Source: a virus
Strand: one strand, 5' to 3'
IMG/VR virus record: IMGVR_UViG_3300031920_000103
Coordinates: 74,694 to 111,873 of that record
Length of the DNA: 37,180 bases
Shown here: one piece after another, positions 1,372-16,435 of the stretch
Layout of the letters: each line of letters begins with the position of its first letter
Numbering within the stretch: position 1 is the first letter of the stretch
Notes under the pieces: generated by a model
What the model saw: only the letters and a program-made list of their open reading frames with translations
The model's database searches: none
Told to the model about the DNA's origin: nothing
Program-made: the position numbers and the translations under genes

Positions 1372-3483
1372 CTAGGTGTCCTCACCCTTTGCGTTGCCAA
1401 AGCTGCGATTCTTCTCGTCTGCCATAAATTTCTTTGTAGCAGACGCGACGATCTCACCGTCTACATTTGTGTTTAGCGTGAGGTTGATCGGTGTTGCCTT
1501 AGAGCCGCCGGCCATAGCGTTAAACACGTTGTTCTGCGACGGGGCTACTTGTGCGGATATGCCCTCTTGCTGCCTCTGTGCTGATATGGCGTTCTCGATC
1601 ACGCTGCTATTGCTACCGCCAACGATGTCACCCGCGAAGTCGCCAACCGCGCCGATGCCGTCCATAAAGCCGCCGCCGATATCGCTAAAAACGCCGCCAA
1701 CCGCTTCCGCCTTGCTGATCACCCACTCTATTTTTCCGATCAGCCAATCGATAAAATCGCCGATACTACTCATTATTCCCATCACGAAATCGAACACCGG
1801 AGTAAGCGCGCTGACAATACCCTCCCAAACGGTAACGATAAACCCGCCAACCGCGACAAAGCCGTCTCGGATTTTTCCGAGGATCGCAACAACGATATTG
1901 AACGCCGTTATGTATGGCTGTATGAAAATCTTAAATAGGATTTTCCCGATCGTCTTGAACATGCCGACTAGCCACAAAAAACCGTCAGCGATTTTGTCCG
2001 TTACCCACTCGAAAGCGTCGACCATAAACCCGGAGATAGCTTCCCAGTTATCCCAGATTAGGTAAGCGGCACCGATTATCAAACCGATGATCGCGAGCCA
2101 CCAAAACGCGACCATAAAAGACGCGCCGATCGTAGCGCCCGCCGTTGTAGACAGGGCCGCCGCTGACACCATAGCGAGTTTGTAAAGAGCCAGAACGCCC
2201 ATGACAACTTTAATTGTGCCGACGACGATCAGCAATATTGGGGCTAGGATCATAAGCGCGCCAATAACTTTTTGCACCGGGCCTGGTAGCGTCTGAAAAG
2301 CGGTGATAAGCCAGTTTATCCCCGCGATCATTTTTTTGATTACCGGCAACAGTGCCGCCGCGATCGGTTTGCCTAGCGTAACGCCTAGGGTTTGGATCGA
2401 CCCTTTGAGCAAAGTAACCTGGCCTTTGAAACCGGCTTGCTGCTTACCGACGAAATCTTTTGTCGTACCCGCTGCGCCCGACATTTGATCGCGCATCGCC
2501 TTCGCCGCCTCTGCGCCGAAAACCATATTGCCGGCTGCGTCTTTTACGCCGTTAGCTAGCTGACCGCCGATAGCCTGTGCCGCGCCAAGACCCCTGATGC
2601 CGAATAGCTTAGTGAGTAGCGAGGCTTTTTTAGCCTCGTTGCCCATGGTGTCGGTGTGCTTGGTTACGTCGAGCATCACGTCGATCATTGGCCTGAATTT
2701 TCCCGACGCATCCGTAACGTCGACGCCGATCTTTTTGAATGCTTTTGAGTTCTGCGCCATCTTGATAAGCGCGGTCGAGACACCGGTAGCGGCTGACGAA
2801 ACCTCGACGCCGGTGTTTTTGACAAGACCCATTGCGATCAGCATCTCATCCATGTTTTGCCCTGTGACGGACGCACCACGGGCAACGTTACCTAGGGCAA
2901 GTTGCAAGTCGCCTTGCTGCAACGATGTAAGGTTTGAAATCTTGTTTAGCTTGTCGACCGAAAGAGCCGAGTCTTTTAGATCGAGGTTGAAAATCTTGGT
3001 CGCCGCTGACAGAGTGCCGGTCGCTTGCTCTACCGTAATCATGCCGGCTGCGGCAAGACCTAGCGACGGATCCAAAAGTGCGATCGATTGGTTCGCGTCG
3101 AAACCTACTGACGCGAGTTGTTGCAGACCTAGCACAGCCTCGGTAGGCGAGAACTGTGTAGCTAGCCCTGCCTTGGTTGCCGCCGCCTCTAGTAGCTTTA
3201 GCTCTGCGGGTGTGGACCGCGCGACCGCACCAACACGGGCCAAGCCCTGCTCGAAATCCCCAAAGCTACTCGCGAGGTTTAGCGATCCGCGCAACGCCTT
3301 TGCGCCAACGCCGATCATCACCGCACCGGCCGCGATACTCTTGCCGTGTTGCACAGCGTTGCGCTGATTTGCAGCGCTAACGTCGTCGAGTTCTTTTAGG
3401 TTGCCCTGCAACTTTTTCATCACCTTTGAGGCCATATCTTTGGCGGTGAAAAGAAAGCCCAAGCCCATGTTGTTTAGCGCCAT
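1372..3483 (-). CDS. Tail tape measure protein (TP901-type core)
   Basis: 703 aa, Ala/Gly rich; FEQGLARVGAV, TQFSPTEAVLGLQQLASVG and LFGIRG core motifs; hydrophobic W/F-spaced repeats in the C-terminal half. Confidence 0.92.
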   Translation of the reverse strand: MALNNMGLGFLFTAKDMASKVMKKLQGNLKELDDVSAANQRNAVQHGKSIAAGAVMIGVGAKALRGSLNLASSFGDFEQGLARVGAVARSTPAELKLLEAAATKAGLATQFSPTEAVLGLQQLASVGFDANQSIALLDPSLGLAAAGMITVEQATGTLSAATKIFNLDLKDSALSVDKLNKISNLTSLQQGDLQLALGNVARGASVTGQNMDEMLIAMGLVKNTGVEVSSAATGVSTALIKMAQNSKAFKKIGVDVTDASGKFRPMIDVMLDVTKHTDTMGNEAKKASLLTKLFGIRGLGAAQAIGGQLANGVKDAAGNMVFGAEAAKAMRDQMSGAAGTTKDFVGKQQAGFKGQVTLLKGSIQTLGVTLGKPIAAALLPVIKKMIAGINWLITAFQTLPGPVQKVIGALMILAPILLIVVGTIKVVMGVLALYKLAMVSAAALSTTAGATIGASFMVAFWWLAIIGLIIGAAYLIWDNWEAISGFMVDAFEWVTDKIADGFLWLVGMFKTIGKILFKIFIQPYITAFNIVVAILGKIRDGFVAVGGFIVTVWEGIVSALTPVFDFVMGIMSSIGDFIDWLIGKIEWVISKAEAVGGVFSDIGGGFMDGIGAVGDFAGDIVGGSNSSVIENAISAQRQQEGISAQVAPSQNNVFNAMAGGSKATPINLTLNTNVDGEIVASATKKFMADEKNRSFGNAKGEDT

Positions 3484-3678
3484 CTATCTATTCGCCTTCC
3501 TGATAGCTGCCGCCTCTGCGTTGCGTCGAGTCTGTATCCACTCCACCCATTCGATAAACCTTTTGAAATCGAGAGACCAAACATCGGCTAGGGTCAGCGT
3601 TGTTCCGCTGCCCTCGTGTTGATGCCAACAGAGATGTCTTATGCCTTCCCATAGATCGTCAGAACTCATCATGGGCAT
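3484..3678 (-). CDS. Tail assembly chaperone T segment (probably reached by -1 frameshift)
   Basis: Small ORF between chaperone and tape measure, in the -1 frame of the chaperone; that frame is open back to ~3774. Confidence 0.65.
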   Translation of the reverse strand: MPMMSSDDLWEGIRHLCWHQHEGSGTTLTLADVWSLDFKRFIEWVEWIQTRRNAEAAAIRKANR

Positions 3679-3686
3679 AAGCCCGT

Positions 3687-4448
3687 TTAGACTGCCCCCA
3701 AGGAACGTTGCTTCCTCTTCCGACTCGACGACTGAGTAGGGAAGAAGAAGTTTTGGTCGAAAGGGAGCGTCACGTCACTTAGTGCGTAGCACTCGTTACA
3801 CTCGATCTCGATCGTGGTCTCGACGCCGCAATCAACCTCATCGAATTTGCCAATCAAATCGTTCGCTACGCCTAGCGGCATTTCCTCGATATACTTGCGC
3901 ATGTCGTTTTTGTTTACGCCTTGGATCTCCTCGATGCGCATCCGCAGCGAGAGCGACACGAGAGAGTCCCTGTGCTGCGATTTAAGGGCCAGTGCCCGCT
4001 TTTCGTCGGCACCTACGGGCAGATTGAAAAACACCGGTGTACCGTCAAGCAGGGCCGTCTCGTAGCGGTTCGCATTCTTGTACGCCGCCCGCTGCGCATC
4101 GGTCAGGCTACTTACCGGCATGTCGTCTAGGTTGACTTCCCACTCGAAACGGTTGTTGCACCCGCCCGCGCCGCACTGCGCCTTAAACAGATACTCGGCA
4201 CCGAGAGTTGCTTTGCGGATCTGTAGTAACAAATACGTTCGATCACCAACTAGAACTCGATCCCAGTCTAGCGGGGCTGAGTACGGGCCGTGATCTTCCA
4301 CGGTCTCAACCGCTGCGGTCAGTAGCTTGTTGATCATCGCGGGCATTTTCTTTGCCCCCGATGCGTTGGCCAAAATGTCGGCCTCTTTTGTTTTTAGTCC
4401 GCGCACTGTGCAGACCATCCCCGAGGGGCACGTAACTTGTTCACTCAT
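3687..4448 (-). CDS. Tail assembly chaperone (T4 gp26/baseplate hub assembly-like)
   Basis: ATG at 4448 (MSEQVTCPSG) after a purine-rich RBS; GDRTYLLLQIR, CxxxxC and CxxC motifs; between tube and tape measure. Confidence 0.75.
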   Translation of the reverse strand: MSEQVTCPSGMVCTVRGLKTKEADILANASGAKKMPAMINKLLTAAVETVEDHGPYSAPLDWDRVLVGDRTYLLLQIRKATLGAEYLFKAQCGAGGCNNRFEWEVNLDDMPVSSLTDAQRAAYKNANRYETALLDGTPVFFNLPVGADEKRALALKSQHRDSLVSLSLRMRIEEIQGVNKNDMRKYIEEMPLGVANDLIGKFDEVDCGVETTIEIECNECYALSDVTLPFDQNFFFPTQSSSRKRKQRSLGAV

Positions 4449-4473
4449 GGTTGTTTGGTTCTTTCCCGTCTCG

Positions 4474-4514
4474 AAAAAAGAAAGCACCGAGCCCCTAATT
4501 AGGCCGGTGCTTTC
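4474..4514 (-). terminator. Intrinsic terminator after the tail tube gene
   Basis: Minus strand GAAAGCACCGGCC-TAATTAGG-GGCTCGGTGCTTTC followed by TTTTTT. Confidence 0.75.
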
Positions 4515-4581
4515 GGTAATGTAACTGGCTCAGACCTCGCGATCTTTAGGGCGTGGCCGGCGCACCCGTTTGCTCGGTCTA

Positions 4582-5073
4582 CTAAGCTGCGATCGGCTCA
4601 AAGAAATCGTAGGTGAGAGTCACCATCTCGATCACTTTTTCGTCGGAGTCGTTGTCCCATTCGCCGGCGACAAACTTTTGCGGCCAAGCGTTGTAGAGAC
4701 GCCAACGTCGCAACGTTGTGCCGTCGCGGTCTTGTTGGATCACGTCGAGCGTGCGCTTGTACAAAGGATCGGGAAGACCCGCGCCTTGCCCCGCCGGGAC
4801 CGCGCCCGCGCCAAAGCTCGCAGCGTTTGCTACGTCGTTGAACCAAGCGTACATGTCGAGATCTTCGGTAGCGCCGCGCTCAAGCGTTACGTCTGTGAAC
4901 GTCAAGCGGCCGGGGCTCTTGTGCGGGATAAGGGCACCGCCCTCGCTGTATTCGATTTTAGCGGCCTCGACAGAAAGCTCTGACATTTTGTTGAAACCGG
5001 CCGACTGAATGCCGTCGATCTCAACTATGAATTTGAACTTATCGTGAAAGCTGCGGGGTTGTCCTAGGGTCAT
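4582..5073 (-). CDS. Tail tube protein, T4 gp19 / Afp1-5-like
   Basis: [22 protein letters not shown]...[16 protein letters not shown]...W.LYNAWP.K...W......IE...L.Y family pattern; TAAGGA RBS upstream. Confidence 0.92.
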
Positions 5074-5098
5074 TGATCATTCCTTACGAGGCAAGCTC

Positions 5099-5127
5099 TT
5101 GCCTGCGAAACTTTTTAGGTATATGGT
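5099..5127 (+). promoter_or_regulatory. Putative sigma70-type leaderless promoter of the endonuclease VII gene
   Basis: TTGCCT-17 bp-TATGGT, 5 nt before the ATG at 5133; no Shine-Dalgarno; palindrome AGGCAAG-CT-CTTGCCT (5089-5104) overlaps the -35. Confidence 0.55.
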
Positions 5128-5132
5128 TACGC

Positions 5133-5639
5133 ATGGCATGTCTTTGTGGTTGCGGTGAAACACCTAGTGCGGATACTCGCTCGTTTGTGGCGGGGCATTG
5201 GAACAGACCGTGCAGATCACCGGATGAGTTCGCGGTGTGGAAGCCGGCGCGGGATGCGCTTAGGCTGGAAAATGGCAGAGCGCGCAGTCGTGTGAATGCC
5301 GCGCAGCGTCGCAAGGATTTCCCGGACGACGCTACTGAGCGCCGCAGGATGCAACTGTGGACACGATACCGCATCACGCCAGACGAGTACAAAGCCATGT
5401 TGGCGTCGCAAGGGGGGGTGTGCGCCGTATGCGGGACAGACGATCCGAAGTCGGGTAAAGGCGGATTCGTAGTTGACCACGCGCACGAATCCGGCCCGTA
5501 CAATGGTGGGCGTACTGGTGACATTCGTGGTGCTTTGTGTGGGCGCTGTAACATGGCGTTGGGGCAGTTAGGTCATGATGTCGAGGTACTCAGAGCCGCT
5601 ATCGTGTACTTGAGCAAAGACCCGGCGATTAAACGCTAG
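5133..5639 (+). CDS. Free-standing endonuclease VII-family (His-Me finger) homing endonuclease, antisense to the tail operon
   Basis: N-terminal CLCGCG..F..GH motif; Y.IT..EY..ML.SQGGVCAVC...VDHAH...IRGALCGRCNMALG is the EndoVII signature. Start placed at ATG 5133. Confidence 0.88.
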   Translation: MACLCGCGETPSADTRSFVAGHWNRPCRSPDEFAVWKPARDALRLENGRARSRVNAAQRRKDFPDDATERRRMQLWTRYRITPDEYKAMLASQGGVCAVCGTDDPKSGKGGFVVDHAHESGPYNGGRTGDIRGALCGRCNMALGQLGHDVEVLRAAIVYLSKDPAIKR

Positions 5640-7852
5640 GATGCTAGCTCCTCTTCAAGTGCTCGCGTGTCTTGGCTCACTTTCAAAATCACAAAGTCGG
5701 TTGGCTTGGCAGTCGCGAGACCGATTTTGATAACCATCTGACGGGCGAAGATAACTGACGGCGGGTTTACCGCCTTCGAGGTATCGACAAAGAACGCGGA
5801 CGCTGGATCGTTTGACGCGAAAGCGTTGTTGCGCATCTGGTTAAGCAGGAACAACGTAACCGTGCGGTTGGCAATTGCTCGCGTCGCTTCGGTGTTCGGT
5901 TGGTGCTTTAGAAATTGCAGACCGCGCTTTAGCGATTGCTCAATGAAGATCACGCCGCGCCGCTCTGGGATGCTCGGGAAGTTCCCGCCCTCTTTGAGCG
6001 TCTTGGTTCCATCGAGGTAAATCGGTAGACCCGGCAACGTGGTGATCGGGTTCACCAACTTGGGGTAAAGCAGATCTAGCTTCGCCTCGTCTAGCGCCTC
6101 AAGCGTCTCGAATCCGAGCACGCCAAACAGGCGACCCGTCTCGATACCAGCGGGGGCACGGTAGACGCCGCCCGGAGATGAGCCGTCAGTGCGCGCGTAC
6201 GCACCGGCGATATGCCCGGAGGGCGGTACGACAATGTTTGCGTCGGTCCCGAACACAGCTTTGCTCGGGTTAAGGATCTCAATTCGAGGCCAGTAGATTG
6301 CGCCGAACTCGGATATGTTGACGAGTTGCGCGGTACTCGTCACGTAGGTATCCATCTCGGCAGCGCTCTGATCTTCCGGGGGATCGAGAACCGCAAACAC
6401 TGCTTTGTCGCGTGTGCTTTCGCAGTACGTGATCATAGCGTTGTGCACAGCGGAGGTTGCGCGACCCGGTACCAACAAAAGTGTCAGGTCTTGGATCGTG
6501 TCGAGTGCGCGGATGCCGGTGTCGCCTGCGTCGCTGCCCACAAAATCGGTGTCGTCGAGCGCGGCTAAACCGTCGTTGCCGCCAACCATAAAGCCAGACG
6601 TTGCGACTGCGGGGCGTGGGTCGGTTGCTGTGTTGAGTTGGTCAACAACAGAAACGTAGATCGATGCGCCGTTGATGATTGTCTCAACGTAACGAGTCGC
6701 CGTTGCAACCATGCTCAGGTTCGGGAACTGCTCGACAATCAAACCGTCGTCAACAACGTTTATGTTGAACTCGTCAGCGGAACCGGAGGTCGGAGCCGTG
6801 CGCTGAATCTTGATCGTGTCTGCGTAGCTTCCGTCAGTCTTGCCGCTAAAGATTAGCGTGGGAGCCGCCGCGCCGGTATCGCCCGAGTGCAGCGCGTTGT
6901 CGAAACCAAGCTCGTCGTCAGCGGTAGATATCGCTTCGGCTTGGATCGAGTTTGCGGGGCCGGCTGCACTTGTCGAGTTGATCTGCACTGCGCCGCCAAC
7001 GTCAGTCACCAGAGTGTTGGCAACGTCAGCCTCGACTACCGCTTTGATCTCCGCAACCGTAACCGCAGAGATGTCGGCAACGTCACCGGTGCCGAATACC
7101 GGTGTGATCGATAAGCCGAGTGCTACTAGCGCGGTGCCGCCCGTAAACGATGTTTGCGAGCCGGTGCCCTTCGAGTCGGAGGTTACGCGCACAGCGCCGG
7201 CTGACACGTCAGCATTCGCGCCAACGATTTCGGCGTTGATAACTGCGGCAACTTCGAGAGCCGTAGCCGCGCCGATCGAGACAAACTCTGCGGTGTTGAA
7301 AACGATCGTTTGGACTGCGCCGCCGTCAACCGCGACCGTTAGATCTTGCAGGTCGGCTAGTGCGAAAGGCCCGGCATTAGTGCCGGTGTCGATCGCTGCG
7401 GCTGCGTCGAAAGTAGCAACAAGAGATCCGCCGCCGTCGACTGACATCGATAGCGTATCGGCGGGGCTCATCGCAAACGGCGCAAGAGTTGTTCCTAGTA
7501 GGATGCCAACCGAGGGCGAGCCGGTGGCGGTGTTGAGAGTCACAGCGCCCGGCGCTGATGTCTTCGTGCCTGGTACGGTGATATTCGTGTAGTGGACGGT
7601 ACGCACGATGTACGCTTGTGATCCGCCGTTCTCAAAGAACCCTTGCACTGCGAGGGTTAGATCAGACGCGGAGGTGTACCCGCCGAACACGCGCACGTAT
7701 TCCTCGAAAGAAGTTACGAACGTTGCAACACCAAGCGGGCCTCGCTCTGTGATACCGACGAAACCGGCAACGGCAGTCGGGACGGATGCGATCGTGCGTA
7801 CGCTAGGCTCCTCCTCAACGACGACGACTTTAGAACTTAGTAGTTGAGCCAT
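5636..7852 (-). CDS. Contractile tail sheath protein with a large inserted domain
   Basis: TAVAGFVGITERGP, SFEEYVRVFGG, GFFENGG, FAVLDPP, AIYWP, PPSGHIAGAYARTD, RAPAG, ERR..IFIEQSL and IGLATAKP motifs. Confidence 0.95.
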   Translation of the reverse strand: MAQLLSSKVVVVEEEPSVRTIASVPTAVAGFVGITERGPLGVATFVTSFEEYVRVFGGYTSASDLTLAVQGFFENGGSQAYIVRTVHYTNITVPGTKTSAPGAVTLNTATGSPSVGILLGTTLAPFAMSPADTLSMSVDGGGSLVATFDAAAAIDTGTNAGPFALADLQDLTVAVDGGAVQTIVFNTAEFVSIGAATALEVAAVINAEIVGANADVSAGAVRVTSDSKGTGSQTSFTGGTALVALGLSITPVFGTGDVADISAVTVAEIKAVVEADVANTLVTDVGGAVQINSTSAAGPANSIQAEAISTADDELGFDNALHSGDTGAAAPTLIFSGKTDGSYADTIKIQRTAPTSGSADEFNINVVDDGLIVEQFPNLSMVATATRYVETIINGASIYVSVVDQLNTATDPRPAVATSGFMVGGNDGLAALDDTDFVGSDAGDTGIRALDTIQDLTLLLVPGRATSAVHNAMITYCESTRDKAVFAVLDPPEDQSAAEMDTYVTSTAQLVNISEFGAIYWPRIEILNPSKAVFGTDANIVVPPSGHIAGAYARTDGSSPGGVYRAPAGIETGRLFGVLGFETLEALDEAKLDLLYPKLVNPITTLPGLPIYLDGTKTLKEGGNFPSIPERRGVIFIEQSLKRGLQFLKHQPNTEATRAIANRTVTLFLLNQMRNNAFASNDPASAFFVDTSKAVNPPSVIFARQMVIKIGLATAKPTDFVILKVSQDTRALEEELAS

Positions 7853-12596: not shown

Positions 12597-13541
12597 CTAG
12601 CTGACCCTAACGCCGGTCGTCTTCACGACAGCATCCTCTTGCTGGTACTTGAAATCGAACCGCATCGTCGCGACGATCAGCAAGACGCCCTCGGAAACCA
12701 ACTTGTCGGTGTCGATTTTGATCTTGCGCCAAACACCAACGTTGATGTTTTTCGGGTCGGTCAAAATGATGTTGGTCTCGTTGGTACCACCGCCGAGATT
12801 TTCCGGGAAGAGCGGAACGTCAACAAGCGGGATTCCGCTGTAACGAGGATCGTGATCGTTCTCAAGCGCGGTGTCTCCGAGCGTAGTAGAGCGGTCAGAA
12901 ACGAGATCTTGGTAGTCGATCCGAGCGTCGACAGACGTGATGTACTTCATCGCCGTCTTGTTGCGTAGGTACTCGCTCGGCATGGTCTTGAGCATGTTGC
13001 GCAAGAATGTCTTGTTGATGGTAGCGGTGCCACCAAGAACAATGTTTGACGTAGCGGCTTTGAGCATACCGTCAAACTGAGCGAGGAAAGGATCTGCGGA
13101 AGCGGTGTCGCCGTTAACGATCACCTCGTCCATATCGCGAGCGATGCTCTCGGACATAAGCTGCATGACCGTGTTGCGAAGTTGATCGCGCTCGATCGAA
13201 TCTTCGAGAACTTCGTCAGAGAGTCGGACCTCTGCTTTGAATAGCTTTGCGTCAAGCTCGACCTTGGATAGATCGGGCTTGCTGCGATCGGCTTTCGGCA
13301 ACGCGGTTGCCTCTGCGCCGGCGCGCAAAATGCGGCTACCAAAACGGATTTTCTCAAGCAATTGCTTGGGCGACTTCATAGGGGTGACGGTTGCCATCCC
13401 CATCACGACGGATTCCTTGATCAGAATCCGGATGAATCGCTGCGCCTGTGCAGGCTGTAGAACGCCGCCGTCGCTGGTCAGCTCCCCTAGCGCCAAGTCG
13501 GCTTTTTCTAAAATTGATCGGTTGTTTGTAACTTGCGACAT
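12597..13541 (-). CDS. Major capsid protein (HK97 fold, XkdG-like)
   Basis: ILEKAD...[42 protein letters not shown] and MRFDF.Y..EDAVV motifs; GGAG RBS. Confidence 0.93.
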
Positions 13542-13594: not shown

Positions 13595-14830
13595 CTACTC
13601 GTCTACGGTGAACCAATAGCCTTCGGGCGATTCCGCCTTACTGATTGGTTTGTTCATATCGGCGGGCCATGAAACGTTCTGCGTTTCTGGCGCGGCTATT
13701 GTCGGGCTACCCTCATCGGTGCTCGAATTCGGAAGATCGAAAGTTTTTTTGAGCCGCATGATCTCGACGTTCGCTTTTGCGAGTGCGTCGGTTGTTTCGG
13801 TCAGCAACTCTGTCGCCATCACCTCGCCCTTGGCAACAACTGCGGGGGCGTCGGTCTCTGGTTTCTCTGGTTTCTCTGGTTTCTCTGGATCGGCTGCGGG
13901 TGCGGCCTTGTCAGTTTTTGCGCGACGCTCTGCGGCGTCGGCAACAAGTGAGTCGAACTCTTCGGGGGCAATTTCTGCGAGCAAGTCGATCAGGTCAGTT
14001 GCGATCGAACGCAATTTGGTGAGTCGGTCGCCGGCCATTTTGCGGCCTGCCTTGCTCATGGGCTTGATCACTTGCGCGGCTTTCGCCAACGCCGCAAGCG
14101 TGTCGTCGCTCTTGTCGACTGCGGCGGGCTCGCGGCCCCAAGATTTTTTCGCGGGGGTCGGGTCGGCTGTGGGCTCGCTCTTTGCGGCGGGCTCGGGCTC
14201 TACGGTGTAGCGCTCGATCAGACCTGACACGAGGCGGGCAACCGCCATCAATTCTTTGGTGACAACATCGGGCACGCCGTCGTCGCTTTTCTCGACGCCC
14301 TCTGCGCCCTCAACAACTCCGACAAGAGCTACAAGGCGCTCAAGGGATTCGGTTGCCATGCGTACGGTCTGCGCTTTGTCGACTGGCGCGATTCCTTTTT
14401 TTGCCTCGTCGTCAACAGCGCTGTACTTTTCAGAAACAGTAAAGAGAATGTCGCGAGCTACCGATAGCTCTTTTGAGATCTCGGCGGGTATACCCTCTGC
14501 GGTCGAGTCGTCGTCTTCTGCCTTGATCAACTCGGATGCCTTGGTAACAAGTGCTAGTGCTTTCGTTGCGACTGACAAGATCTCGGTCTTGTCGTCGTTC
14601 TGAATCGAAAGAGAAGCACCTTTGCCAGTGTCGACGATCGTTGTGAGTTTGCCGCTCTCATCTTCGACGACTTCTGCACCCGTAGTTTTGTCTGACATAT
14701 CTGCGCCTCTTTTTAGCATCAAAAATTTTTGTTTGTTTGCAGCGCGATCGACTAGAGAAACCTCCTGCACGAGTATGTCGTGCAAACGGTTTACGTCTGG
14801 TCCGTCGATCTTTCCGATTGCGTCACTCAT
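13595..14830 (-). CDS. Scaffold-like head protein with an N-terminal protease-strand motif (EVSLVDRAAN)
   Basis: Acidic, helical, low complexity; directly upstream of the capsid gene; possible internal start at ATG 14698 with AGAGG RBS; TTG 14842 is an alternative start. Confidence 0.75.
   Translation of the reverse strand: MSDAIGKIDGPDVNRLHDILVQEVSLVDRAANKQKFLMLKRGADMSDKTTGAEVVEDESGKLTTIVDTGKGASLSIQNDDKTEILSVATKALALVTKASELIKAEDDDSTAEGIPAEISKELSVARDILFTVSEKYSAVDDEAKKGIAPVDKAQTVRMATESLERLVALVGVVEGAEGVEKSDDGVPDVVTKELMAVARLVSGLIERYTVEPEPAAKSEPTADPTPAKKSWGREPAAVDKSDDTLAALAKAAQVIKPMSKAGRKMAGDRLTKLRSIATDLIDLLAEIAPEEFDSLVADAAERRAKTDKAAPAADPEKPEKPEKPETDAPAVVAKGEVMATELLTETTDALAKANVEIMRLKKTFDLPNSSTDEGSPTIAAPETQNVSWPADMNKPISKAESPEGYWFTVDE
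13855..13888. repeat. 9-bp coding tandem repeat (PEK linker)
   Basis: TCTCTGGTT, three full copies plus a partial copy. Confidence 0.85.
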
Positions 14831-14875
14831 TCTGCTAGTCAAGTCTCTGAGCTTTTCGGCCCGTTGTCAATCGCG

Positions 14876-14904
14876 ACTCTATACGCGAGCGCAAAGAGTT
14901 ACAA
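14876..14904 (-). promoter_or_regulatory. Putative promoter between protease and scaffold genes
   Basis: TTGTAA-17 bp-TAGAGT on the minus strand. Confidence 0.55.
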
Positions 14905-14917
14905 CAATCGATGCGAC

Positions 14918-16435
14918 TCAGTTTGCTGAAAACTCGGGACGTTCGGGCACGCGTACTGCACTACCGCCAATCGAGAACCCGGTCAGCCCGCCCTCTTTGA
15001 CCTCTCCCCAAAGGTCGTCGTCGAGTACGCGCACGGCCAAAAGCCACGTGCCTTTTTTGACGGCAATACCGCCCATCGCGAAATCTTCGGGCGCAAGATA
15101 GCTCTCCAAAATCTTGACCTGATCGTTCACAACTTTGTTGTGCATCAGTCCAATGTTCTGAAATTGCTCCATGAATCTATGCGCGGACTGCCTGACCTCT
15201 TCCGCAGAATAGATATCGTCTTGCGCGTCGATCACCTCTGGCTCAAGCACGATGCCGAGAACAAAGCGCTCCTCGACTTCGCCGGCAGCGGGCATGATTG
15301 TTTTTGTGATCGCGTGCTCGACGACCTCCGGATCATGCGCGGGCTCTGCCGCCACCTCTGCCGCCACCTCTGCCGCCACCTCTGCCGCCACCTTGTCAAC
15401 TATGGCCAAAAAAGAAACGTTCTTAGCCTTGGCTACTGCGCCAGAATAGACCCAAATAATTTCCTCGTCGCCGTCGATCAGAAACGGCGTGCTTACTTTG
15501 GCGAGAGCTTGTGCGCTCTCGGGTGTGTTGCGTACGCCTAAGAGAAAATCGTTTGCAACCTTTGCAACCGCGTCGACTAGATCGGCAACGTCTGCATTTT
15601 CGCGCGAGTCAGTCACTACGATCGCAACGTCCTTTTCGATGTCGTCTGCGCAGTCTGCGATCGTGTCGCTCCACGTGTCGTCGCCGTCAGGTGGTGAAAC
15701 GATCGCAAAGTCTTTTGTGTCGCCAAGCACTATGTCGATGCGCTTGCGTACTTTTGGTCGCGGCTTTGCGTCGACCTCTGCGCACTCTGCGGGCGGATCG
15801 TACAGATATGTTTTTGTAACGACCCGGCATAGGTCGCCGTTGACTAGCCGGATATTGTCCTCGGTGAAAAACTTAGACGTGAGCAAAGCTGCGTGCGACT
15901 TTGCGATTTCGTCTCCCTCTTTTTCCCAGTACCGATGATCCTTGCTAATTACACGCGCGAGAGATTCGGGCAGCATCGATTCGCCCTCGACCAAGCTAGC
16001 CTCGAAACCGGGTTGCAGGATCGCCGGTAGTAAACTTTTGGTCAGCGTAACGTCGCAAATTTCACCAACGCGCTCGATCCGTAGGATGCCCGCTAGCTTG
16101 TCGCCCTTTACGAAAAACTCTCGGTACGCTTGCGCGTCGGTCTCGTACAGTACGCCGGTCTCGATCGTCATAGAAGCGGCGACCGCCGCTTTGATCTTCT
16201 TGATGTCGCGATCTACTCGCTTGGCTAGAACGCCCTGACGCAACGAGTGCGAACAACGATCGCCGTCAGCGTTGAAAGTCTCGACCGCCTTTGCGACTCC
16301 GATCGACTCGGTGCCGTCACGCGAAAGCGACAAATCCCAGACATCGAGAGAGTCGTGGGATTCGATAACTAGCGACGCCGTGCGGGCAGCGTCATCGGCC
16401 ATGACAAGCGCGGCCTTTTTTGGTTCGGTTGGCAT
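14918..16435 (-). CDS. Prohead maturation protease, XkdF-type C-terminal domain with a long N-terminal extension
   Basis: ERFVLGIVLEPEVIDAQDDIYSAEEVRQSAHRFM, GLMH, ILESYLAP, KKGTWLL, LWGEVKEG.LTGFSIGG. Confidence 0.88.
   Translation of the reverse strand: MPTEPKKAALVMADDAARTASLVIESHDSLDVWDLSLSRDGTESIGVAKAVETFNADGDRCSHSLRQGVLAKRVDRDIKKIKAAVAASMTIETGVLYETDAQAYREFFVKGDKLAGILRIERVGEICDVTLTKSLLPAILQPGFEASLVEGESMLPESLARVISKDHRYWEKEGDEIAKSHAALLTSKFFTEDNIRLVNGDLCRVVTKTYLYDPPAECAEVDAKPRPKVRKRIDIVLGDTKDFAIVSPPDGDDTWSDTIADCADDIEKDVAIVVTDSRENADVADLVDAVAKVANDFLLGVRNTPESAQALAKVSTPFLIDGDEEIIWVYSGAVAKAKNVSFLAIVDKVAAEVAAEVAAEVAAEPAHDPEVVEHAITKTIMPAAGEVEERFVLGIVLEPEVIDAQDDIYSAEEVRQSAHRFMEQFQNIGLMHNKVVNDQVKILESYLAPEDFAMGGIAVKKGTWLLAVRVLDDDLWGEVKEGGLTGFSIGGSAVRVPERPEFSAN
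15344..15391. repeat. 12-bp coding tandem repeat x4 (VAAE linker before the protease domain)
   Basis: CTCTGCCGCCAC, four exact copies. Confidence 0.9.

Follow-up and report, generated by a model that had tools for sequence, protein, structure and literature searches.

An XkdF-type head-maturation protease probably completed in trans by the N-terminal hairpin of its scaffold

The DNA described here is a 37,180-nt window (the whole stretch that was analysed), covering positions 74,694-111,873 of the virus record IMGVR_UViG_3300031920_000103, the full length of which is 111,873 bp. Its subject is a head-maturation protease that appears to be laid out over two neighboring genes, namely an open reading frame (ORF) for a protein with an XkdF-type protease domain, and the next ORF, for a scaffold-like protein that carries near its N-terminus a hairpin motif found elsewhere in the same chain as such proteases. 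All genes concerned lie on the minus strand, and the scaffold-like gene adjoins the major capsid gene, directly upstream of it (Table 1). The protease gene product consists of an N-terminal part (amino acids, aa, 1-365), an AAEV repeat linker and the C-terminal protease domain, in that order. The start region of the scaffold reads ...NRLHDILVQEVSLVDRAANKQKFLMLKRG; besides the TTG start there is an alternative one at ATG 14830, which gives a protein of 411 aa and is the gene caller's choice (P0124 is this 411-aa form). No Pfam family was matched by the scaffold-like protein.

Table 1. Coordinates of the protease, the scaffold and adjoining features in the window
Feature	Coordinates	Strand	Evidence
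Protease gene, 505 aa	14918..16435	-	ORF list; PF14550 E 8e-29; full-length relatives P0004-P0008, 39-57% identity
XkdF-type protease domain, aa 387-495	14951..15277	-	Pfam match; predicted fold nearest T4 gp21
Spacer, 75 nt, in frame with both ORFs	14843..14917	-	Translation and sequence
Hairpin NRLHDILVQEVSLVDRAANKQKFLMLKR, scaffold aa 18-45 from TTG	14708..14791	-	Genome-unique motif; phrog_3017; docking; AlphaFold2
Scaffold-like gene, 415 aa from TTG 14842	13595..14842	-	ORF list; relatives show same position
Major capsid protein, HK97 fold family	12597..13541	-	PF05065 E 7e-15

The protease domain was assigned by its match to PF14550 (Peptidase_S78_2/XkdF), which scored 100.6 bits against a cut-off of 24 (103.9 bits in the genome search) and covered profile positions 10-124 of 126, so that the domain is complete by Pfam's definition. 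An earlier note, made from the sequence alone, had claimed that this ORF holds the motifs of the catalytic His and Ser and yet stops soon after the latter, and this was indeed found to be the case. His432 (GLMH, codon 15142-15140) and Ser488 (GFSIGG, codon 14974-14972), which are H67 and S123 in domain numbering, are invariant across the aligned domains of 49 relatives and likewise across the C-terminal cis forms described below, and the ORF ends ...GLTGFSIGGSAVRVPERPEFSAN, with the stop 18 residues past the Ser motif. Unlike the named members of PF14550, neither the 505-aa ORF nor 120 of its homologues contain a VS.V...A hairpin, an element that falls outside the Pfam model of this family.

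The same note placed the missing EVSLVD-type strand at the start of the next gene, and there it is, as NRLHDILVQEVSLVDRAANKQKFLMLKR near the scaffold N-terminus. The hairpin consensus is RL.D...EVSLVDRAANK..FL..KR, in which the Glu of EVS is Glu27 when counted from the TTG (codon 14764-14762). Translation of the 111,873-bp genome in all six frames yields the motif a single time, where 0.005 occurrences per shuffled genome would be expected. Over 69 distinct scaffolds, the hairpin block (36 residues) had a median identity to the window of 58%, versus 20% for the rest of the scaffold; judged from these identities, the hairpin is the more strongly constrained part of the protein. In 53 aligned scaffold N-termini, numbered from ATG 14830, the residues L16, E23, V27, D28, A31, N32 and K40 are invariant. 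A profile built from these 53 split-type N-termini and run against representatives of 50%-identity clusters matched 2,907 of them at E <= 0.001 and 705 at E <= 1e-10, and the match started within the first 21 residues in 140 of the 150 best.

Two further features of the hairpin were seen in passing. In the alignment of the scaffold N-termini, a near-invariant K-R closes the hairpin and is followed a few residues on by a Met (..VKRxDxM..); this may be where the protease-hairpin unit is cut loose from the rest of the scaffold. A metagenomic scaffold-like protein of 281 aa (P0211) carries two tandem hairpins (VSEVSLVDNPANNRRFLLYK and VHEVSLVDQPANMRKFLLFK); going by its sequence, it could have the capacity for two protease molecules.

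Between the two ORFs, the shared frame is closed by three stops within 78 nt, just as the earlier note had counted them: the protease's own TGA (14920-14918), a TAG (14881-14879) and another TGA (14869-14867). The promoter that the note had also placed here was not reproduced, as a consensus scan of the minus-strand spacer showed no sigma-70-like site. The predicted fold of the spacer RNA was not unusual (z 0.72).

Whether the split is kept in relatives, a check proposed in the earlier note, was examined at several levels. A protein search with the protease retrieved 379 homologues; among the best 120 of these, none has the hairpin motif and all but six end within ~55 aa past GFSIGGSA.R. Single-protein pattern scans of viral contigs returned no close relatives for either the protease or the scaffold, and a tblastn search of cultured phages with the scaffold gave no match; an alignment of the domain was needed, and it matched 329 viral contigs. 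Eighty-five loci were then inspected, consisting of the window, the surroundings of four of the homologues (L005-L008) and 80 of the 329 contigs, and the ORF after the protease was scored for the motif R-L-x-D-(M/I)-x-V-x-E-V-S-L-V-D-R-A-A-N-K-x-R-F-L-x-V-K-R at its start. In 84 loci (76 scored by the first script, and eight added upon re-inspection of those it had missed), a separate downstream ORF carries the hairpin, and at none of the 85 does the protease ORF carry it. The frame of the scaffold ORF relative to that of the protease is +2 in 52 of the 76 loci scored by script, and the two genes frequently overlap there at an ATGA, which usually signals coupled translation; it is +1 in 7 loci, and the same in 17, including the window, with 1-6 stops between the genes. 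Since same-frame loci are no commoner than chance, the in-frame layout of the window is a coincidence. At one locus (L036), a 338-aa gene of the opposite strand, 3512-4528 (-), sits between the protease and scaffold genes. At another (L017), a 939-aa double Dam-protease fusion is followed by an ORF of >1000 aa (3285-6374, +) with a HEAAHVVQQ motif and no scaffold, the fetched locus ending before any scaffold.

Two cultured phages have the two-gene layout as well. In Pseudomonas phage PaoP5 (L089), gp054 (2896-3366) is a stand-alone XkdF domain of 157 aa annotated as 'DNA methyltransferase', and gp055 (3363-4280), annotated as 'hypothetical protein', is the scaffold with a divergent hairpin, starting ...AHVALVSKLQGGAANGHTTLITK. 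Rhizobium phage RHph_Y1_11 has gp149 and, next to it, gp150, with the start ...VNIVSMVKRGANRIPFRIVK. These results document that the split is conserved across a large clade and is not an accident. As an aside on annotation, the 'DNA methyltransferase' label recurs across many Pakpunavirus records, and has probably spread from Dam-protease fusion proteins. Two database proteins that look fused (P0240 and P0351) were rejected as natural fusions, since their Arg-rich out-of-frame stretches point to frame errors.

Natural single-chain relatives are nonetheless available for comparison, and they come in two orders. The hairpin (I/VSYVDKAANKKQFFLTK) comes first in gp58 of Bacillus phage BMBtp14 and gp33 of Lactococcus phage 28201, followed by the protease domain and a scaffold-like tail; this bears out the earlier note's statement that the hairpin may be permuted to the N-terminus. 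In ORF12 of Methanobacterium phage psiM2 and 56 further distinct database proteins, hereafter the C-terminal cis forms, the order is protease domain, hairpin and tail, with the hairpin, VS.VD.PAVPKAKF.A.K, placed 27-55 residues past the Ser motif. These XkdF fusions resemble the window in having the same protease domain (36-41% identity) and the hairpin motif, and in their genome position between the portal/Mu-F genes and the major capsid gene. They differ from it in that hairpin, protease and scaffold form one chain, whereas in the window the protease has no scaffold part and the hairpin opens the scaffold gene. The window thus has the order of psiM2, with a cut that falls after the Ser strand and before the hairpin. 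The PHROG profile phrog_3017 ('head maturation protease') reflects the same cut: its positions 4-36 match aa 19-51 of the scaffold (E 2.7e-5), and its positions 39-156 match aa 377-497 of the protease (E 1.6e-36). At the level of sequence, this distribution of one profile over two genes is the most direct evidence that the hairpin belongs to the protease.

The earlier note had also proposed a complex prediction for the protease domain and the scaffold N-terminus. With alignments of 49 and 53 sequences, respectively, as input, the interface score ipSAE (interaction prediction score from aligned errors) was 0.84, 0.86 and 0.86, and 0.00 in all three controls; the mark used for this score is reached by 58 of 80 solved complexes and by 2 of 110 mismatched pairs. 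The hairpin is predicted to dock on the Ser strand and the His loop. The runs share at least 79% of their contacts, and the predicted local distance difference test score (pLDDT) of the partner is 55-57. On the protease side, the predicted interface consists of residues 26-32 (first strand), 62-67 (His loop) and 117-134 (Ser strand plus its tail); on the scaffold side, it consists of residues 11-30 and 35-39. The Val of EVS contacts domain residues 31, 56, 62-64, 101 and 122-125, which is a buried position in the core, flanked by the Ser strand and the His loop, and not a surface groove. It is to be noted that the matching strand is in the same chain in the solved gp21 and herpesvirus proteases, so the docking result speaks for a reconstituted fold rather than for binding in the cell.

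Modeled by AlphaFold2 (AF2), the domain alone had a mean pLDDT of 82, the Ser-strand block averaging 58 and the His block 79. For a joined chain, the window was read through its three stops as an artificial linker and aligned with 12 in-frame relatives and 39 natural C-terminal cis forms. The resulting model had a mean pLDDT of 83, a long Ser strand at 113-124 (block mean 96), and hairpin strands at 176-189 and 200-202 with block means of 87-97. To our knowledge, no XkdF structure has been solved, and the protease domain had no meaningful match among Protein Data Bank sequences. The models were compared exhaustively by VIA-align with 48,161 solved chains. The domain alone matched T4 gp21 at Z 6.5 (106 aligned residues, chain 24-152) and the varicella-zoster virus (VZV) protease at Z 4.4 (chain 11-125), the human cytomegalovirus (HCMV) protease not being listed. 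With the hairpin added, the values were Z 10.9 for gp21 (root-mean-square deviation 3.4, 125 aligned, chain 24-172), Z 8.3 for VZV (chain 11-158) and Z 6.5 for HCMV, and these proteases were the top three of all 48,161 chains. In Foldseek, the template modeling score normalised to gp21 rose from 0.41 to 0.53 upon addition of the hairpin, with a probability of 0.99-1.00. From this improvement it follows that the modeled hairpin occupies the place of the ~20-30 residues after the catalytic Ser in these proteases.

T4 gp21 and the herpesvirus assemblins (5JBL, 1VZV, 8J3S) are thus the best structural matches, the hairpin mapping past their catalytic Ser; unlike in the window, the equivalent stretch is in the same chain. 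Herpesvirus proteases are moreover fused to their own scaffold, whereas the window protease is separate. Fusions of the P2 gpO, lambda C/Nu3 and herpesvirus UL26 type consist of one polypeptide or of nested in-frame genes, in contrast to the two ORFs and three stops found here. A likeness to HK97 gp4 (Peptidase_S78) was also apparent, in that both systems have a first strand with D.DGD, then the His, G.S.G and E(I/V)S.V..PAN. In gp4 these are FEGYASVFNNTDSDGDI, His65 and GMS(114)VGF, followed by LREISVCTFPANEQ at 139-152, in agreement with the statement in the earlier note that a strand of this kind follows the Ser motif in HK97. By hhalign, with profiles of the split clade and a mixed profile, the alignment to gp4 was collinear and not significant (E 0.03-0.15). 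Searched at E <= 10, neither the protease nor the scaffold N-terminus nor the cis relatives matched PF04586, and the genome gave no match to it at E <= 1. The HK97 relationship is for these reasons a likeness and not a membership. The S78 sequences gathered from viral contigs were only copies 96-100% identical to gp4. HK97 gp4 is a single chain, unlike the two-gene protease of the window, and, as Duda, Oh and Hendrix reportedly described in 2013, has its own C-terminal capsid-targeting tail.

The earlier note further held that the hairpin strand brings in the catalytic acid, a claim that stands in part. All 53 aligned split-type hairpins have the Glu of EVS, but the cis forms do not conserve this position: those with an N-terminal hairpin have His there, as does PaoP5, and the C-terminal ones have T, A, F, P or Y, their sole conserved hairpin residues being Ser, Val, Ala and Lys. 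Because of this variation, the Glu cannot be a universal member of the triad. In proteases of the assemblin-like fold, the third triad member (Asp in gp21, His in herpesviruses) is expected ~20-25 residues past the Ser. At the level of stretches, the Glu falls in the part that aligns with gp21 residues 152-172. The triad of SPN3US gp245 (H77, S153, D178) has been aligned to that of gp21 (PMC5694885); by our arithmetic from this alignment, gp21 should have its third triad residue ~25 positions past the Ser, within the stretch added by the hairpin. A possible part for the hairpin in catalysis is suggested by the order that it is predicted to bring to the Ser strand and the His loop, and by the invariant Glu, which may correspond to the Asp of gp21 and to Glu140 of HK97.

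We consider it probable that the two genes encode a single head-maturation protease, the scaffold hairpin docking in trans, completing the fold, tethering the enzyme and probably ordering the active site. The notion that the scaffold N-terminus would supply the missing piece of the protease fold, put forward in the earlier note, draws support from the conservation of the split, the cis relatives, phrog_3017, the predicted docking with its null controls and the match of the models to gp21. On this account, the 505-aa protein would be an XkdF-type domain with the catalytic His and Ser but lacking the hairpin that, in its kin, follows the Ser strand or stands at the N-terminus, and the hairpin would be the first folded element of the scaffold made from the next gene. 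After separate translation, the hairpin would insert beside the Ser-bearing strand and the His loop, completing an assemblin-like fold. This non-covalent join would replace the covalent protease-scaffold fusion of the relatives, tying the protease and any N-terminal cargo to the scaffold so that both enter the procapsid; such loading is the simplest functional reading that the data suggest. The hairpin would probably also order the active site, in which case full activity would need engagement of the scaffold. We infer binding of the hairpin to the protease in the cell, a dependence of activity on the hairpin, and a role in encapsidation, and such dependence would couple activation of the protease to procapsid assembly, as the earlier note had inferred. 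A stricter version, in which the enzyme is an obligate heterodimer with His and Ser from the protease and Glu and the ordering strand from the scaffold, and is incapable of proteolysis until bound to scaffold in the procapsid, is offered tentatively, as we regard it as possible but doubtful.

Several points weigh against the trans-completed protease. Every structural statement above rests on predictions, and the joined-chain model depends on an artificial read-through linker. The models may merely reproduce the same-chain arrangement learned from relatives, which would make them a measure of fold likeness and not of binding in the cell. The homology of the hairpin to the EISV strand of HK97 gp4 is not significant in sequence comparison and there is no PF04586 match, while invariance of the EVS Glu and the VD Asp is confined to the split clade, both residues varying in the C-terminal cis forms, so that a catalytic role is putative. 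Lastly, the domain alone is predicted to fold and so could be stable and active by itself. This last point leads to a tether-only alternative, in which the hairpin recruits to the procapsid a domain that is already fully folded and active, so that the split would serve recruitment and would not be a switch for activation. Its credit lies in the good mean pLDDT of the isolated domain and its best match to gp21 even then, in the presence of both His and Ser in the protease chain, and in the variability of the putative third residue among cis forms. We nevertheless find it rather unlikely, as, within the core, the Ser strand and the His loop are modeled with the least confidence when the hairpin is absent and with confidence once it is present, the hairpin is predicted to be buried against both, and the matching stretch is core in the solved homologues, where it should hold the third triad residue of gp21 (again by arithmetic from PMC5694885).

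That the scaffold N-terminus simply lies in the active-site groove, as a first cleavage site or as an inhibitor, would agree with the predicted contacts to the Ser strand and with the general habit of proteases to take substrates as extended strands. There is also a precedent in T4 gp21, which is controlled via self-cleavage of its N-terminus, the latter blocking the catalytic centre before activation (PMC9958956). A substrate or pseudo-substrate would not, however, be expected in the same chain in relatives and as part of a 'head maturation protease' profile, nor would the Val of the hairpin be buried against six separate segments of the domain; the hairpin, moreover, adds ~4 Z to the gp21 and herpesvirus matches through residues equivalent to core strands there. 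We thus deem this explanation very improbable. Hardly credible is the idea that the protease is not really split, be it by read-through or recoding of the stops, a broken gene or an assembly error. The shared frame of the two ORFs in the window and the other same-frame loci would permit it, but the three stops, closely spaced and different, lie in a spacer of no special RNA structure, 59 of the 76 scored relatives are in other frames and same-frame loci do not exceed chance, genes intervene in two loci (L036 and L017), the cultured phages PaoP5 and RHph_Y1_11 share the two-gene layout, and the 'fused' proteins in the databases, few in number, seem to be products of frame errors. These findings uphold the earlier opinion that read-through is unlikely.

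The remaining parts of both proteins also deserve description. The N-terminal 365 aa of the protease (window 15341-16435, -) are kept in the full-length relatives P0004-P0008 at 39-57% identity; they matched no Pfam or PHROG family and had no informative protein-atlas neighbour. In other relatives, this N-terminal slot is empty or is taken by a Dam methylase (PF02086), an InPase (PF18823) or other domains, and such variability in sequence suggests that the N-terminal domain may be cargo brought into the head by the protease. The linker that joins this part to the protease domain is a tandem AAEV repeat (VAAEVAAEVAAEVAAE; window ~15335-15395, -). At the other end of the pair, the C-terminus of the scaffold (window 13595-13720, -) has a conserved W-P-x-D-(M/L)-N-x-P motif, which reads WPADMNKP here and WPSDMNNP, WPLDLNRP, WPVDMNSP and WSLDMNNP at the scaffold ends of L005-L008; it is probably the capsid-binding end. 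The earlier note had also seen one such motif in an upstream acidic protein of 262 aa.

Completion of a protease by another viral protein has well-known parallels. In flavivirus NS2B-NS3, hepatitis C virus (HCV) NS3-NS4A and the adenovirus protease with pVIc, a short strand of another viral protein joins the protease sheet and is needed for full activity, and the pVIc peptide derives from a capsid precursor, linking activation to assembly. The folds concerned, chymotrypsin-like and papain-like, are unrelated to that of the window protease, and the likeness is one of analogy only. We know of no assemblin-like capsid protease with a strand donated by another viral protein. A literature search on XkdF, Pakpunavirus scaffolds and protease strands supplied in trans found no paper describing the split, and XkdF is not mentioned in PMC5512222.

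Prohead proteases have to be kept silent until the shell is built, and each model phage has a different answer to this problem. With the split layout, the answer for a very large group (329 contigs by the domain profile and 2,907 representatives by the hairpin profile) would be a simple structural one; PaoP5 and other cultured Pakpunavirus phages of Pseudomonas are among its members. Phages of this genus are studied as therapy candidates (e.g., PMC12846349). If the obligate heterodimer were true, the lock would prevent premature cleavage, and it could also hide the activity of the protease from host immunity that senses prohead proteases (cyclic oligonucleotide-based antiphage signaling system, CBASS; bioRxiv 10.64898/2026.03.04.709575). 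The results also correct recurring misannotations, namely of stand-alone protease domains as 'DNA methyltransferase' and of scaffolds as 'hypothetical'. Finally, a non-covalent join between protease and scaffold would explain how N-terminal cargo, such as Dam methylases, InPase and others, could reach the heads without a covalent link to the scaffold.

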